A DNA stretch of 64,000 bases from Candidatus Eiseniibacteriota bacterium (GTDB lineage Bacteria > Eisenbacteria > RBG-16-71-46 > JABDJR01), in contig CAWANH010000028.1 in NCBI GenBank assembly GCA_963783375.1, positions 1,280,001 to 1,344,000 of the forward strand, in the 5' to 3' direction. Position numbers and translations under genes: made by a program. Shown piece by piece: positions 2,560-13,161 of this stretch. The notes beneath the pieces were generated by a model that did no database searches, was not told the origin of the DNA, and was given only the letters and a program-made list of their open reading frames with translations. Each line of letters begins with the position of its first letter. Within the stretch, counting starts at the first letter, position 1.

Positions 2560-2731
2560 GCGGAAGGCGTCCCGCCTCGGCACGGGGTGGGTGAGGGGGG
2601 GAGAAACGGGCGCGGCGATCGCGGTGAAAACGGGTGGCGCCGGGCGGCGCAAAGCCCCGCGCAACCCGACTTCCCCGGTTCTCAGCCCCATCCTCCCGGC
2701 GTATCATCGGCCGGAGGAGAATCGTCACCGC

Positions 2732-4042
2732 ATGCTCAAGAACTACATCCTCGACACCAACGTGCTGCTCCACGACCCGGGATCCCTGGTCTCGTTCCAG
2801 GACAACACGGTCATCGTCCCGATCTACGTGATCGAGGAGGTCGATCACTTCAAGAAGGAGGCCTCGGAGCTGGGGCGGAACGCCCGCGAGGTCTCGCGCA
2901 TCCTCGACCGGTATCGCGCGGAGGGGAACCTCGCCCAGGGAGTGGATCTCCCCACCGGCGGCCGCCTTCGGGTGGTGATCGATCACGATTACCCGCTCGA
3001 GGCGATGAACGGAAGCCCATCCAAGGTGGACCACGCGCTTCTCTCCCTGGCGCTCAAGATCCGGGGGGAACGGGAGGGGGAGCTGCCGGTGATCCTGGTG
3101 ACCAAGGACACCAACCTCCGGATCAAGGCGGACGCTCTCGGCATCAAGGCCGAGGACTACGAGACCGGCCGGGTGGACCTGAACGAGCTTTATCGCGGTG
3201 CGGTGGACCTGACCCTGTCGCGCGAACAGGTGGAGGCGCTCCGCGCGGGGGAAACCCTGCCCGCGCCTCCCGGGGACTTCTACCCCAACGAGTACGCCTT
3301 GGCCCTCTCCGGCGGCGAGCCGGTGGTCTCGGCCCTGGCCCGCATCTCGGCCGACCTCGCCGGGCTCCAGCCGCTACACCTCCCCGACCGGCCGGTCCTG
3401 GGGCTGAAGCCCAAGAACAAGGAGCAGCACTTCGCTCTGGACGCGCTGCTGGACCCCGAGGTGAAGCTGGTGACCCTGATGGGAAAGGCGGGAACGGGGA
3501 AGACCATCCTGGCCATCGCCGCCGGACTCCAGCAGGTGGAGGAGCAGGGGACCTACGCGAGGCTCCTGGTATCGCGGCCGATCTTCCCCATGGGACGCGA
3601 CATCGGCTATCTCCCCGGCGAGGTCGAGGAGAAACTCAACCCCTGGATGCAACCGATCTACGACAACCTCGAGTTCATCCTCGAACGCCAGCGGGGGCGC
3701 AAGGGGTTCACGATCGGGAAGCTCCTGGCCGGCGGCACCATCGGCATCGAACCCATCACCTACATACGGGGAAGGAGCATTCCCGGGCAGTTCCTGATCG
3801 TGGACGAGGCGCAGAACCTCACCCCGCTCGAGGTGAAGACCATCATCACCCGCGTGGGCGAGGGGACGAAGATCGTGCTCACCGGCGATCCCTACCAGAT
3901 CGACAACCCTTACGTGGACGCCTCCTCCAACGGATTCAACTACCTGGTGCAGAAGTTCCGCCCCGAAGCCCTGGCCGCACACGTGGAGCTGGTCAAGGGG
4001 GAACGAAGCCTGCTCGCGGAACGCGCGTCGGACCTTCTCTGA
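2732..4042 (+). CDS. PhoH-family ATPase with N-terminal PIN nuclease domain (PhoH2/YlaK type)
   Basis: YILDTNVLLHDP PIN start, LVTKDTNLRIKA, Walker A GKAGTGKT, GYLPG, RGRSI, IVDEAQN, LTGDPYQID. GGAGGAG RBS. Confidence 0.95.
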   Translation: MLKNYILDTNVLLHDPGSLVSFQDNTVIVPIYVIEEVDHFKKEASELGRNAREVSRILDRYRAEGNLAQGVDLPTGGRLRVVIDHDYPLEAMNGSPSKVDHALLSLALKIRGEREGELPVILVTKDTNLRIKADALGIKAEDYETGRVDLNELYRGAVDLTLSREQVEALRAGETLPAPPGDFYPNEYALALSGGEPVVSALARISADLAGLQPLHLPDRPVLGLKPKNKEQHFALDALLDPEVKLVTLMGKAGTGKTILAIAAGLQQVEEQGTYARLLVSRPIFPMGRDIGYLPGEVEEKLNPWMQPIYDNLEFILERQRGRKGFTIGKLLAGGTIGIEPITYIRGRSIPGQFLIVDEAQNLTPLEVKTIITRVGEGTKIVLTGDPYQIDNPYVDASSNGFNYLVQKFRPEALAAHVELVKGERSLLAERASDLL

Positions 4043-4386: not shown

Positions 4387-4427
4387 TTCTCCACGACCCT
4401 TCCACACTTTCCACAGCCTTATGCACA
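4387..4427 (+). promoter_or_regulatory. Tandem DnaA-box-like 9-mers
   Basis: TTCTCCACG (4387), CCTTCCACA (4398), CTTTCCACA (4407) and TTATGCACA (4419, exact match to TTWTNCACA), all in the same orientation. TTCTCAACA also occurs at 4274. Confidence 0.45.
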
Positions 4428-4572
4428 CGGGCCGATGGGAGAAAACTCCAAGACACCATGCGGCTTGCGCCGGACGCTTCAATCGGGGCGCGAGATTCCG
4501 GTGCGTTCCGCCCGCAGGCGCCGATTGTTGAGCGCGTTCGGAAGCCATAATGCGCGCATGGAGCGAAACTTT

Positions 4573-4601
4573 TTGACCTGGCTCCGGACCCGCGTTACCT
4601 T
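4573..4601 (+). promoter_or_regulatory. sigma70-type promoter for the large ncRNA candidate
   Basis: TTGACC (4573-4578), 17-bp spacer, TACCTT (4596-4601). The predicted start near 4607-4608 coincides with the first base of the terminal closing stem. Confidence 0.7.
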
Positions 4602-4606
4602 GGGTT

Positions 4607-5520
4607 CGAGGGTCGTGATCGACCTGTCCGGCACCGACACCCGGCTTTGCCGGGACAAGGTGCAAGAACCCCAGGAGGGGCGGCGATCTCTGCGGAGAAA
4701 GCCAAGGACCTCCGCGGTGAAGACTCCGAAGGGTGCGCCGAGGCAGGCGGCTTGTCCGCCGACCGGAGCGAAGCCCATGGGAGGAGGCGCTCGTGAAGAG
4801 CGAGGCCGCCGCGGGGGGAGATGAACCCCTGGAGGGGAAGAAGCCCAAGGGAGGCACGAGCCGTCACGGCGCTTCGGCGCCGGCACGGCCACGGACTTCC
4901 ACGGAGACCAAACCCCGGAAGGCGGGCGAGGACACTGCTGAATCGAGCGCAGCAGGTCCGCTTGAGCCAACGTCAGGCGGGGAGGACCGAACCGAGAGGT
5001 CCGGACCATGCCGTGGAAGGGGAACCCTTCGAAGGGCGGAATCCCAGGAGCGTACCGGTCTGAAACACGGTCGGAAGGTTGCGGGAGGAACAAGGCGTCA
5101 GGAGGGTGCGAAACCCTGGAGACGCAGCGTACCCGGGCGAGGTAAACCCGGGGAAGTCGCTTCCCGCCTCCGGAAACGCTGTAGGGAGACAAACCCTGGT
5201 GAGGCGTGTGTCGCCGAGAGGCGGTGCGCGGCCCGGTTCGGTCAAACTCCGAAGGAGAGCGGAAGTCCAGGAGAGGCTCGCGACAACTTTCTCACGATGA
5301 CCGTCGCGACGGCGGGCACCGGAAGGCCTTCGGCGGGGCGTTAAAGCGACCCAGGTCCGAAGGAAGCGCGGAACCGATGACCGCGCTACGGATGCCCGAG
5401 GCAACCTCTGAAGGATGCGTAACTCCACGGGAGGAGGCGTTGTCGGGGTGACCCGGCTTCGCAGTCGATCCGGCGAGAAGTCTCAGAAGGGGAAACGGAC
5501 AGGCGGCGGCCCTCGTTTTT
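4607..5520 (+). ncRNA. Candidate ~910-nt highly structured modular non-coding RNA, family not recognised
   Basis: No credible ORF. 5' CGAGGGTCG (4607-4615) and CCTGTCCG (4623-4630) pair with 3' CGGCCCTCG (5507-5515) and CGGACAGG (5496-5503), then TTTTT (5516-5520). About nine repeated internal-loop helices, plus C(UUCG)G and GNRA-capped hairpins. Confidence 0.8.
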
Positions 5521-5825
5521 CTTGTAGCCAGCCCTCCCAGGGGGTCCGAAACCTCGGATCTCCGGCGCGAGGAGCCGGAAGCCGCCGCCAAGGTGCGCCG
5601 CCGACTCTCCCACCGCGCGGCGGCGCCGAGCGCGTCGCTCTCCCGGGTGCCGATCCGTCCTCAGGCACCCGTCTATCCGGTCCCGCCCGGATTTGCCGTC
5701 CGCGCTCCTCGCCCAACCGGCTCGGGCAACCGCCTGCCTGCTCGGCAGGGTCCCGAAACGCCCGCCGAGTCGTCGGCCTTTCCCCTCGGATCACTCCGGT
5801 CACCCCCCCCGCGTCAACGATCCGT

Positions 5826-6374
5826 TCAGCCTTCCCACTCCGGCAGCTCGCCCTCGGGGATCGCCCGCAGAAGTGGGTTCCCCCGGTCGCGCCCCGAGAG
5901 GATCGGCGCGTCGATTCCCCAGGGAACGCCCAGGTCGGGATCGTTCCACGCCACCCCCAGCTCGTCGTCGCCGTCGTAGTAGTTGTCCACCACGTAGGCC
6001 AGGGTGCAGTCGGTGAGGGCCAGGAAACCGTGGGCCACCCCCACCGGCACGAACACCCCCATCGGCTCCTGCTCGTCGAGGTCGATCACCTCCCGGCCCC
6101 CGCGGGTGGGGGAGCCGCGCCGGATGTCCACCAGGGCGATCCGGATCCGGCCGGCCATCGGCACCCAGTAATCGATCTGCCGCCGATGGTAGTGCAGGCC
6201 GCGCAGCACGCCCTCCCGCGAGTCGGATCGGTTGCCCTGGACGGCCTCCCAGTTCCGCTCCGGAAACCACTCCCGGCGGAAGGTTTCCAGGAAACGCCCG
6301 CGCTCGTCGGAGAACGGTTTCAGGACCGCGAACTTGACCCCGCGTATGCGGCTCGACTCCCGGATCTCGATCAT
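5826..6374 (-). CDS. rfbC: dTDP-4-dehydrorhamnose 3,5-epimerase
   Basis: FSDERGRFLE, GVLRGLHYH, VDIRRGSPT, VPVGVAHGFLAL, WNDPDLGVPW. GGAGGA RBS before ATG 6374. Confidence 0.92.
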   Translation of the reverse strand: MIEIRESSRIRGVKFAVLKPFSDERGRFLETFRREWFPERNWEAVQGNRSDSREGVLRGLHYHRRQIDYWVPMAGRIRIALVDIRRGSPTRGGREVIDLDEQEPMGVFVPVGVAHGFLALTDCTLAYVVDNYYDGDDELGVAWNDPDLGVPWGIDAPILSGRDRGNPLLRAIPEGELPEWEG

Positions 6375-10057: not shown

Positions 10058-11044
10058 ATGGACAAGATAATCCTGGACTGGGACACCATCCGCGGCCTGC
10101 TCCTGACCCACGGCCTGCGGATTCTTCTCATCTTCATCGCCTCCTTCGTGGCCTACCGGGTGGTGAAGTTCATCGTGCGCCGGGTGGAGCGGTCGGTGGA
10201 GGACGACGACCCCGATACCAAGAGCGAGGTGGAGAAGCGCGCGGAAACCCTGGGGCGGATCGTGAACCAGGTGTCGATGGTGGTCATCGCGCTCACCGCC
10301 GGGATGCTGCTCATGAAGGAGCTGGGGTTCGAGATCGGCCCCATCATCGCGGGGGCGGGGATCGCCGGGCTGGCCATCGGCTTCGGGGCCCAGAACCTGG
10401 TCCGGGATCTCATCACCGGCTTCTTCATCCTCTTCGAGAACCAGTTCCGGGTGGGGGACGTGGTCGAGGTGGCGGGGAAGGGGGGGCTGGTGGAGGCGAT
10501 CAACCTCCGGACCACCGTGCTCCGGGACCTCGAGGGGAACGTGCACGTCATCCCCAACGGGGCGATCGAGACCGTCACCAACCGCACCCGGGAGTGGTCC
10601 CGGATCATGCTCGACGTGGGGGTGGCCTACAAGGAGAGCGTGGACCGGGTGATGGAGGTTCTGGCCGAGATCGGGAAGACCATGGAGGAGGATCCCGAGT
10701 TCGGCCCCAAGATCATGGAGCCCCTGAGCATCCTCGGGGTGAACGAGTTCGCGGACTCCGCGGTCAACGTCCGGGTCGTGTTCAAGACGCGGCCGCTCAT
10801 GCAGTGGGCGGTGGGCCGCGAGTTCCGGCGCCGCATCAAGAACCGGTTCGATGAGGAAGGGATCGAGATCCCCTTTCCCCATCGCACCATTTACATCGGG
10901 GAGGGGGTCCAGGGGACCCTTCCCCACCGGACCGAGGCCGCCCCGCCCGACCCCGAGCGAGGCGGACGGCCGGGCCGGGACCTCACCGACACCGGACCCC
11001 AGATGGGGCCGGGAGAGACCGTCGAGGAGGCGCACGACCGGTGA
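10058..11044 (+). CDS. Small-conductance mechanosensitive channel (MscS/YbiO family)
   Basis: GIAGLAIGFGAQNLVRDLITGFFILFENQFRVGD, G.VE.INLRTT.LRD, IPNG, GIEIPFP. Confidence 0.93.
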   Translation: MDKIILDWDTIRGLLLTHGLRILLIFIASFVAYRVVKFIVRRVERSVEDDDPDTKSEVEKRAETLGRIVNQVSMVVIALTAGMLLMKELGFEIGPIIAGAGIAGLAIGFGAQNLVRDLITGFFILFENQFRVGDVVEVAGKGGLVEAINLRTTVLRDLEGNVHVIPNGAIETVTNRTREWSRIMLDVGVAYKESVDRVMEVLAEIGKTMEEDPEFGPKIMEPLSILGVNEFADSAVNVRVVFKTRPLMQWAVGREFRRRIKNRFDEEGIEIPFPHRTIYIGEGVQGTLPHRTEAAPPDPERGGRPGRDLTDTGPQMGPGETVEEAHDR

Positions 11045-13161
11045 AGATCTGCGAGGCCCCGGACCGGATCCGGGACGTGGTGCTGAACGGGCTGAGCCTG
11101 AGCCTGGAAGAGATCGTGGCGGTGGCGCGATACCGCGCCCGGGTCAGCCTGGACCCCGCCGCGGCGCGCCGGGTGGGGTTCTCCAGGGCGGTGGTGGAAC
11201 GGCTGGTGGCCGACCGGGCCAAGGTGTACGGGCTCACCACCGGATTCGGATCCAAGCGGGACATCCTGATCGATCCCGAGGAGTTGGGCCAGCTTCAGGA
11301 GAACCTGATCCGGAGCCACGCCTGCGGGGTGGGGGATCCGCTCCGCGAGGACGAGGCGCGGGCGGCCATGCTGCTTCGTGCCAACACCCTGGCCCGGGGA
11401 AATTCCGGGGTGCGCCCGGTGGTGATCGAGGCGCTGCTCGAGTTCCTGAACCGGGACGTCTTTCCCTGGATCCCCTCCAAGGGATCCCTGGGGGCGAGCG
11501 GCGACCTCGCCCCGCTGAGCCATCTCGCGCTGTCCTTGTGCAACGACCCCGAGGCCCGGTTCTACCGCCCCGATCCCGATGAGCCCGCCCCCGACGGTCC
11601 CCGGTCCGAGGGCGGCCGCGCGCCGGACTATGTGGCGAAGCCGACGGCCTGGCGCTTCGGGGCCGCCCCCGAAGGGCTCTTCGGCGGGCGGGACGGGCTC
11701 TCCCCCCTGGTGCTTCGGGCCAAGGAGGGGTTGGCGCTCAACAACGGAACCCAGGTGAGCGTGGCCATCGGAATCCTCACCCTGTTCGACGCCATCGTGC
11801 TGTTGGAGAGCGGGGAGCTGGCCTGCGCCCTGAGCCTCGAGGCCACCAAGGGGGTGCGCGACGCCTTCGACCCCCGTCTTCACGCCGCCCGTCCCCTCGA
11901 GGGCCAGCCCCAGACCGCAGCCAACATCCGCGCCTTCACCGAGGATAGCCAGATCCTCACCGTGCCTCTCAACACCGCCCGGCTCCACCGGGCCCGCTGG
12001 GCGCTGGCCGCGGCGGCGGAGATCCTGGAGGACCGGGAGGGAACGGGGCGAAAGGACCTCGTCGAGCGGGCGCGCGAGCTGGGGGACCGGCTGGTGGCGC
12101 TGGAGGACGACTCCCCCCATCTCCTGGAGCGGGAACGGGCCGCGCTCTCCGCCGCCGAGCGGGATCGCCTCCCCGAGCGTGCGGTGAACCAGCGCATCTA
12201 CCGTGAGGCCCTGGGGCCGATCCGAAGCGAGGTCCTGGCCCTCTATGCCTCGCTCCTGGAGGCGCCCCTGGCCGGGGAGTCGGTCAAGGGACGGGACTTC
12301 CTGGCCGACGCGGTCTCCCAGCTCCAGCTCGCCCTCCCCGAGATGCCCTCGGTCCAGGACGACTACTCATTCCGCTGCACCCCCCAGGTGATCGGGACCA
12401 CCCGCAAGGTGGTGGAGGACGTCCGTCGCACCCTGGTCATCGAAGCCAACAGCGCCACCGACAACCCCCTCATATTCCCTCCCCGGGGGGATGCCTTCGA
12501 GGGCACGGTGGAGGCCTACGCCGCCTCGCTCACCGTGAAGGAATGCCTGGAATCGGTGGTGAGCGGCGGGAACTTCCACGGCGAGCCGATCGCCGTCGCC
12601 CTCGACACCCTCGCGATCGCCCTGGCCGAGCTGGGAAGCATCTCCGAACGTCGCACCGCCCACCTGGTGGACGGGAATCTTTCGAACGGTCTTCCCTCGC
12701 TCCTGGTGGAGCGGAGCGGGCTCAACAACGGCCTCATGATTCCCCAGTACGTGGCCGCCGCCCTGGTGAGCGAGAACAAGGTGCTGGCCCACCCGGCCTC
12801 GGTGGATTCCATCCCCACCTGCGAGAACACCGAGGACCACGTGAGCATGAGTCCCCTGGCCGCGCTCAAGTGCCGTCAGATCCTGGAGAACGTGGAAATC
12901 GTGGTGGCCATCGAGCTCCTGACCGCCTGGCAGGGGGTGTATTTCCGCCGGCCCTTCCGTTGCGGGCGCGCCACCGAGCGGCTCTGGGAGGCGATGGAGG
13001 AGGCGGGGCTCCGGCCGGTGCGCACCGACCGGGTGCTGTACCGGGACATCGACTGGTCGCGGAGCTTCCTGAAGCGGGGCGGAGCGTGGCATCTGGCGCG
13101 CGCGTACGGCGCGGTGGGGGCCGTGGAGACGGGCGCGGATCGGCCTGCCGGGGGCGGATGA
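11041..13161 (+). CDS. hutH: Histidine ammonia-lyase (MIO aromatic amino-acid lyase family) with large insertions
   Basis: VYGLTTGFG, LIRSHACG (Ser-His pair typical of histidases), GASGDLAPL MIO motif, KEGLALNNGT, QDDYSFRC, GGNFHG, EDHVSM. Confidence 0.85.
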   Translation: MKICEAPDRIRDVVLNGLSLSLEEIVAVARYRARVSLDPAAARRVGFSRAVVERLVADRAKVYGLTTGFGSKRDILIDPEELGQLQENLIRSHACGVGDPLREDEARAAMLLRANTLARGNSGVRPVVIEALLEFLNRDVFPWIPSKGSLGASGDLAPLSHLALSLCNDPEARFYRPDPDEPAPDGPRSEGGRAPDYVAKPTAWRFGAAPEGLFGGRDGLSPLVLRAKEGLALNNGTQVSVAIGILTLFDAIVLLESGELACALSLEATKGVRDAFDPRLHAARPLEGQPQTAANIRAFTEDSQILTVPLNTARLHRARWALAAAAEILEDREGTGRKDLVERARELGDRLVALEDDSPHLLERERAALSAAERDRLPERAVNQRIYREALGPIRSEVLALYASLLEAPLAGESVKGRDFLADAVSQLQLALPEMPSVQDDYSFRCTPQVIGTTRKVVEDVRRTLVIEANSATDNPLIFPPRGDAFEGTVEAYAASLTVKECLESVVSGGNFHGEPIAVALDTLAIALAELGSISERRTAHLVDGNLSNGLPSLLVERSGLNNGLMIPQYVAAALVSENKVLAHPASVDSIPTCENTEDHVSMSPLAALKCRQILENVEIVVAIELLTAWQGVYFRRPFRCGRATERLWEAMEEAGLRPVRTDRVLYRDIDWSRSFLKRGGAWHLARAYGAVGAVETGADRPAGGG

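Follow-up and report, generated by a model that had tools for sequence, protein, structure and literature searches.

What occupies the 1.8 kb gap between phoH2 and the gene for a dTDP-sugar epimerase (ending at 5826, - strand) is the question raised by this locus, part of the 64,000-nucleotide stretch of DNA analysed here as a whole and termed the window. The initial annotation had described here a large RNA made of about nine copies of one helix/loop/helix module, an interpretation that the present analysis supports. To our knowledge, only a handful of bacterial non-coding RNAs this large are known, most with open function.

Limits of the RNA gene

In an alignment of Eisenbacteria relatives, sequence conservation spans from about 4605 to 5520, and the ~910-nt element within these limits is a stand-alone non-coding RNA gene with a promoter of its own. 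Its probable start (~4608) was set from the promoter and its probable end (~5520) from a closing helix and a U-tract. The closing helix differs in sequence yet stays complementary in homologs from three lineages, and the RNA measures ~750-1,240 nt among homologs in which this helix can be placed. The features of the locus are as follows.

2591-4042, + strand: phoH2 (PIN_4 and PhoH), assigned by Pfam, synteny and profile; a conserved upstream neighbour outside the RNA
4387-4427, no strand: cluster of DnaA-box-like 9-mers upstream of the promoter (consensus of PMC8203912)
4573-4601, + strand: sigma70-type promoter TTGACC-17-TACCTT, called from sequence, with the same arrangement at the same place in homologs
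4607-4616, + strand: 5' strand of the closing helix, pairing with 5506-5515 and followed by the U-tract at 5516-5523
4608-5520, + strand: large non-coding RNA, ~910 nt, delimited by conservation, covariation, RNA-run contigs and frame-breaking indels

A protein-coding gene was ruled out, as the four overlapping ORFs have no Pfam match and indels break the frame: none of the 5, 11 and 12 indels that separate the RNA from its three closest homologs has a length divisible by 3. The element occurs only once in its own genome, which excludes a dispersed repeat. Rfam 15 returned no match in the window at gathering score and, at E ≤ 10, just four chance-level matches in the gap (E 1-3.7); five homolog loci gave none at E ≤ 0.5. 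The families without a match include GOLLD, ROOL, OLE, MISL, RNase P, SRP and the group I and II introns. No tRNA genes were found in the window, and a stock promoter/terminator scan called neither signal at the locus. A look-alike of SRP helix 8 at ~5351-5370 was dropped, being unconserved in homologs.

Beyond the U-tract, positions 5540-5800 hold a GC-rich hairpin region with an inverted repeat around 5645-5670, partly kept in relatives G001, G002, G004 and G007, which could represent a small element of its own or else the terminator serving the gene on the opposite strand. Elsewhere in the window, a long ORF at 11041-13161 presumably encodes a relative of histidine ammonia-lyase with a large internal insertion, as judged by eye.

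Presence in RNA libraries

The RNA is present in RNA libraries. Among the listed sequencing runs that hold part of the locus, 14 of 20 are RNA runs. Three RNA runs were compared, carrying three study codes, two of them possibly from one campaign; their contigs, from a copy 97-98% identical to the present one, together cover 4658-5506. Individual contigs cover 4674-5506 (22 differences) in one run, 4658-5118 (11) and 5231-5506 (6) in another, and 5144-5501 (10) in the remaining one. The RNA-run contigs end at 5501-5506; the DNA-run contig goes on to 5615. Summed contig depth ranges from 54 to 128,000 in the six bins at 4556-5479 versus 0 to 17 in bins lying wholly outside the element, and is flat across the locus in the DNA run. 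Contig depth sums over organisms and gives no level, strand or ends, so that it is no measure of abundance, although it hints that the RNA is abundant. In a metagenome scan at least 120 stretches were retrieved, and 68 of the 80 taken with flanks measure 1.0-1.35 kb, close to the length of the RNA itself, as would be expected of assemblies made from RNA. Pairing of the ends of these contigs with each other gained no support, being best in 6 of 68; the ends are ragged and the test is crude.

Promoter and upstream DnaA-box-like sites

Homologs carry a TTGAC-17-TA..T promoter just upstream of the conserved region. The DnaA-box consensus used for the scan was that given in the accessible part of PMC8203912. 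At the present locus, the 9-mer at 4419-4427 lies within one mismatch of this consensus, and three weaker CCAC copies accompany it. A box with at most one mismatch occurs within 250 bp upstream of 20 of the 33 called promoters versus 0 of 31 downstream controls, distributed as 8/8 in Eisenbacteria, 10/12 in the Planctomycetota group, 2/12 in the Myxococcota group and 0/1 elsewhere; this count leaves out loci without a promoter call, several of which also have boxes. None of 1,679 permuted 9-mers reached 20 promoters. In G000, the genome that holds the present locus, boxes are rare: of 205 promoter-like sites 2 have one, and of 57 tRNA/tmRNA genes none. Apart from the RNA promoter, the only boxed promoter-like site of G000 lies at C28:1717440-1717530, where the boxes again lie just upstream of a TTGAC-17-TA..T promoter; the gene behind it we take to be mraZ, of the cell-division cluster. 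The upstream 9-mers might instead be MraZ-type GTGG repeats, a weaker alternative to the DnaA-box reading. A location at the replication origin was ruled out, the main box cluster lying by dnaA ~500 kb away on the same contig. Two small genes of G000, at C28:~424930 and C29:~921500, were also seen to have a DnaA-box-like 9-mer upstream, and their products, by eye, presumably resemble RRM RNA-binding proteins.

Secondary structure and domain organisation

Covariation was computed on 84 sequences and then on 131 (effective number 86, mean identity 52%), the first set having left out sequences with too little flank or more than 90% identity. The RNA displays the overall shape of a wheel, in which the closing helix holds four domains, each opened by a module. 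The domain-opening modules are M1 (4670/4826), M3 (4843/5026), M5 (5042/5176) and M7 (5195/5481, imperfect in this copy), and the inner modules are M2 (4724/4774) and M4 (4913/4971), both inverted, M6 (5095/5113), M8 (5247/5423) and M9 (5266/5405). A tenth module, M10, is present in homologs and decayed here (5326-5363).

4669-4837, + strand: domain 1, with M1 (4669-4680 with 4826-4837) around inverted M2 (4724-4734 with 4773-4783)
4843-5037, + strand: domain 2, with M3 (4843-4854 with 5026-5037) around inverted M4 (4913-4924 with 4971-4982)
5042-5187, + strand: domain 3, the most conserved core, with M5 (5042-5052 with 5177-5187) and the M6 hairpin (5095-5125)
5055-5074 and 5133-5151, + strand: hairpins of domain 3, the former with a conserved UGAAAYA loop
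5194-5492, + strand: domain 4, with M7 (5194-5204 with 5481-5492), M8, M9, decayed M10 and a hairpin at 5366-5385
5247-5433, + strand: head-to-head pair of domain 4, M8 (5247-5257 with 5423-5433) and M9 (5265-5276 with 5405-5416)

Every strand quoted in the initial annotation was found where it had been placed, and the five pairings presented there as clean (M3, M4, M5, M6 and M9) are borne out by covariation in the 131 homologs. The four weaker pairings combined correct strands with wrong partners, since covariation assigns others: 4670 pairs with 4826, 4724 with 4774, 5195 with 5481 and 5247 with 5423. Covarying pairs of domain 1 include 4678-4828, 4725-4782 and 4732-4775. Core pairs counted over 55 sequences were paired in 98.6% of cells, versus at most 51% in slid controls, and 22 of 34 pairs had changed on both sides; part of the invariance of the M6 helix stems from the use of M6 in selecting the sequences.

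The near-constant spacing noted from this single copy is also real and conserved, although 5244/5263 and 5403/5421 join modules head to head rather than closing one module and opening the next. Modules have a constant length of 4 bp + 3 + 4 bp, loops are spaced 14-21 nt apart, and in 362 of 380 cases AA forms the end of the linker. Domain 2 also holds a GNRA hairpin at ~4990. GNRA loops are kept in 110 of 131 homologs at one hairpin and in 106 of 131 at the M6 loop, and poorly at two other hairpins (34/131 and 30/131, where alignment error is possible). The RNA also contains a loop that we take to be T-loop-like. The 110 column pairs with the strongest covariation included no pseudoknot or kissing-loop helix, in an alignment whose weakness in the variable loops may hide short contacts; the only crossing pairs are isolated ones near 5128/5131-5156/5157.

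Repetition of the module was assessed with a descriptor requiring at least 4 bp, an R.N.G/G.N.R loop with matching first pair, at least 4 bp, and AA before the A-strand. Within 4608-5525 it found 8 modules that do not overlap one another, whereas the reverse strand gave 0. Shuffling, the control proposed in the initial annotation, left a mean of 0.17 and at most 2 modules in 500 dinucleotide shuffles against the 8 of the RNA (mean 0.67, maximum 5, without the AA rule). Across 10,286 genome tiles there were no more than 2 modules anywhere except in the tile overlapping the RNA locus. The descriptor was designed once the family was known, which biases both tests in its favour, and the homolog evidence therefore outweighs them. 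With the same descriptor, module number came to 6-9 at 9 loci of Eisenbacteria and to 6-12 at 18 of the Planctomycetota group. As a point against the map, free-energy folding alone recovered only 44 of 72 module pairs, forcing all of them costs 8.8 kcal/mol, and the overall folding z was -3.4 relative to 20 shuffles.

The internal loop consists of two same-purine pairs around a free pair

Loop composition was analysed at the 994 of 1,310 module sites from 131 homologs in which all 8 flanking pairs are intact, with counts uncorrected for relatedness. The first loop pair is A.A in 746 sites, G.G in 223 and mixed in 11, versus 350 mixed pairs expected if the positions were independent. The third is G.G in 918, A.A in 55 and mixed in 3, versus 106 expected. 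At the middle pair all 16 combinations occur. These counts and the unconstrained middle define the unit as two same-purine pairs, A.A or G.G and almost never mixed, surrounding a free pair, which replaces the AGG:GAA loop by which the module had initially been defined. Exchange between A.A and G.G recurs in at least 7 of the 10 modules. A kink-turn is defined by a 3-nt bulge followed by tandem G.A/A.G pairs, and a kink-turn/L7Ae-type motif was ruled out, as the present loop is a symmetric 3x3 and mixed A.G pairs are avoided.

The exchange is probably the signature of a symmetric trans pair, a geometry suggested here by the substitution pattern. According to the accessible text of 10.1101/098723, A.A/G.G exchange is uncommon and is permitted where the backbone alone is contacted, as in Rev-RNA complexes, for which it is described at a protein-bound trans pair; same-purine trans pairs are also reported there to gather cations and to form ligand pockets. 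In the purine-rich loops of the RRE, the major groove is widened for an arginine-rich helix and several Rev copies assemble per RNA (PMC4488727, accessible part).

Distribution and natural variants

When 61 relatives were searched at the DNA level, the match was near full length in G001, G003, G006 and G007 and partial in G008, G021, G027 and G038. A 27-letter pattern run against a species-level genome collection found 13 loci, titled Ca. Eisenbacteria, Myxococcales/Deltaproteobacteria, Acidobacteriota, Planctomycetota or unclassified. A pattern search of Eisenbacteria placed carriers at 10 of 206 genomes, a lower bound because the pattern is out of register at its 5' end and so consumes two of three allowed mismatches; a covariance model of the core, run on 41 relatives, recovered these 10 again. 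With this model, whose carrier counts are lower bounds given the draft genomes, matches were obtained in 31 of 151 genomes of the Myxococcota group (phylum of G206; six matches are weak, with E between 1e-7 and 9e-4) and in 26 of 121 of the Planctomycetota group (relatives of G209). In the phylum of G208 (1/151) and among relatives of G210 (1/101) the seed genome alone matched. Both lone carriers, L187 (G208) and L188 (G210), have phoH2 directly upstream, which may reflect joint transfer of phoH2 and the RNA as one block or misbinning of the contig. Viral contigs (one exact pattern) and plasmids and phages (blastn) yielded zero matches in searches that are insensitive to distant copies. A mobile or phage element found no support, as these collections lack a match and the neighbours are ordinary chromosomal genes.

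The family varies in copy number and architecture. Myxobacterial G207 (L184-L186), G206, G217 and G242 have 2-6 model matches each at separate loci, and the three G207 copies are 56-69% identical. G008 (L189/L030) carries a short version of ~750 nt without domain 1 (M1, M2), with its own promoter and closing helix. A Planctomycetota-type subfamily (L233-L247, L040, L047, L054, L056) displays an extra 5' domain and a short loop in place of UGAAAYA, and often has a PTS EIIA gene downstream.

At the syntenic site of G004 (L011:1467-1580), the promoter, both ends including the closing helix, and the U-tract are kept, the ~840-nt module body is gone and ~70 nt are left; the genome gave no match to the core covariance model. 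G004 is a 3-contig assembly of the same genus as carrier G007. The site may be a natural knockout or may encode a 70-nt mini-RNA, and an assembly error is also possible. As read from this site, the RNA gene appears to be dispensable in one relative, G004.

Proposed function and alternative explanations

The gene, its secondary structure, the loop rule and the fixed module spacing are direct observations, from which we tentatively propose, with a confidence just short of even, that the RNA would serve as a multivalent scaffold or sponge, each module binding one copy of a candidate protein. Nine modules in four domains would present the unit helix / same-purine pair - free pair - same-purine pair / helix as docking sites, in which symmetric trans-type same-purine pairs would introduce a backbone kink and leave the major groove open, as at the Rev site of the HIV RRE. 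Head-to-head modules at fixed distance would create paired sites for a dimeric or oligomerising protein, the RNA would be abundant enough to titrate or organise its protein, and the DnaA-box-like sites would link its transcription to the replication cycle. Scaffold or sponge is the best fit because sites are identical and regular, valency is variable, paralogs are redundant, the gene seems dispensable and no kissing loops were detected. Valency is flexible in that module number varies between loci and G008 lacks domain 1. Redundant sponge RNAs occur as several copies per genome, like the diverged G207 copies. Against this proposal, free A.A/G.G exchange implies that the bases themselves are probably not read, and AA linkers, GNRA loops and a T-loop-like loop are typical parts of RNA-RNA docking. 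No partner protein was identified among CsrA, PhoH2 and the products of neighbour genes.

Binding of CsrA/RsmA, whose target trinucleotide the initial annotation had pointed out, is not supported. The RNA does have purine-rich repeats, some copies of which read GGA, and csrA is present in four carriers (G008, G014, G021, G038), as would suit a CsrB/RsmZ-like sponge. However, no csrA turned up in 11 of 15 carrier genomes, G000 (97% complete) among them, and GGA occurs in about a third of strands (245 of 746 A-strands, 196 of 748 B-strands), partly within helices; on the A-strand the last A of GGA is base-paired, A-U covarying with G-C. We regard a CsrA sponge as largely refuted and scarcely tenable. 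That the RNA might be a dedicated substrate, decoy or regulator of the adjoining PIN-PhoH RNA helicase/RNase is very doubtful. phoH2 immediately precedes the RNA, in the same orientation, in 9 Eisenbacteria carrier loci, in G208 and G210, and in metagenome locus L079, and one gene further upstream near the G004 remnant. Full-score PIN_4 occurs in 13 of 61 Eisenbacteria genomes, covering 9 of 10 carriers, and PIN_4 in 31 of 31 carriers of the Myxococcota group versus 84 of 120 non-carriers (p 9e-5 by Fisher's test, with no correction for kinship or completeness). In the Planctomycetota group, by contrast, the association fails (full-score PIN_4 in 8 of 26 carriers versus 23 of 95 non-carriers), phoH2 is common without the RNA (e.g. 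G005), and G004 retains it though the RNA body is lost. PhoH2 was thus rejected as an obligate partner, being strong in two lineages and failing in this third, and phoH2 appears from its genomic distribution to be an old neighbour and no required partner. Other neighbour genes are varied, and outside Eisenbacteria a scan of 70 of the 85 loci chosen as cluster representatives or added as extra members brought out no RNA-binding neighbour gene in common.

The main rival explanation, a serious one though less probable than the scaffold or sponge and compatible with it, holds that the modules are repeated RNA-RNA joints producing a compact particle or protein-free multimer, as in GOLLD, ROOL and OLE, with AA linkers and GNRA loops docking into the C-G pairs flanking each loop. 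Constant module length, constant loop-to-loop distances, the AA ends of the junctions and GNRA loops conserved at two hairpins agree with it, and both A-minor contacts and RNA-only complexes are described for GOLLD, ROOL and OLE (PMC12286853, accessible text). The known cages, as described in the same accessible text, also need covarying kissing loops, which were not detected here; gain or loss of whole domains is hard to fit with a closed cage, and the GNRA motif is poorly kept at two other hairpins. More specific, and unlikely, is an RNA lattice or cage built from ten double same-purine joints without kissing loops and timed by DnaA, which would make this a cell-cycle-linked structural RNA of several phyla. 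The purine-purine loops may also be imagined as pockets for a metal ion, polyamine or nucleotide in a small-molecule store or sensor. The many identical sites per RNA and the cation-gathering, ligand-binding properties reported for same-purine trans pairs (accessible text of 10.1101/098723) would suit such a function, but the gene stands alone, with no expression platform and no consistent metabolic neighbours, and a free middle pair is unlike a ligand pocket; we consider it highly improbable. The multivalent scaffold or sponge remains our tentative preference.

Comparison with known RNAs and implications

The sponges CsrB/CsrC and RsmX/Y/Z carry many copies of one short motif, with variable valency and redundant paralogs, all of which the present RNA shares; the motif there is a single-stranded GGA, whereas here it is a base-paired internal-loop module, and most tested carriers lack csrA. 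Loop-E-type submotifs of 5S rRNA and SRP RNA helix 8 are protein sites built on a symmetric non-canonical loop that includes G.G. Our module likewise has a symmetric non-canonical internal loop including G.G, but leaves the middle pair free where loop-E-type submotifs constrain it, and SRP and 5S gave no Rfam match at E ≤ 10. MISL RNA is a large Rfam family with repeated substructures, similarly large and repetitive, from which the present RNA differs in having no Rfam 15 match at gathering score or E ≤ 10.

GOLLD, ROOL and OLE, as covered in the accessible text of PMC12286853, share with it the size class, a stand-alone gene, rich covarying structure, open function, patchy distribution, dispensability in at least one lineage (here apparent) and many junction adenosines; RNA-only folding or assembly of this type is also treated in PMC12990946 (accessible part). 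Our RNA has no Rfam match and no detected pseudoknot or kissing helix, and the association of GOLLD and ROOL with phages or prophages and tRNA clusters was not seen in the collections searched or in the window. Its iteration of one internal-loop module 9-10 times is not described for the three families in that part of PMC12286853. HIV-1 RRE stem IIB shares internal-loop purine-purine pairs, A.A/G.G exchange and several sites per RNA (PMC4488727, 10.1101/098723, both in their accessible parts), which describe G.A and G.G around one bulged U and sites unlike each other. This contrasts with the ten near-identical symmetric 3x3 loops of a bacterial chromosomal gene, and the resemblance is one of mechanism only, without homology. 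No published description of the RNA was found in the literature searched, although one may exist in subscription articles or in supplementary files such as the 224-motif supplement of PMC5737381. What the present analysis adds is a corrected map of nine modules, the rule of same-purine pairs, the signal of DnaA-box-like sites at the promoter, the tests of CsrA and PhoH2, and the putative natural deletion.

The RNA spans at least three phylum-level groups, Eisenbacteria, the Myxococcota group and the Planctomycetota group, and its design is unusually regular, with one 3D module used 9-10 times and an A.A/G.G rule drawn from about 1,000 natural instances. Such regularity makes direct tests feasible, since the structure of one ~30-nt module could be determined and the module itself serve as bait. 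The RNA would then represent either multivalent RNA-protein scaffolds of a new class or a novel unit of RNA self-assembly, and the DnaA-box-like promoter and the putative natural deletion may offer the first handles on the physiology of this RNA.
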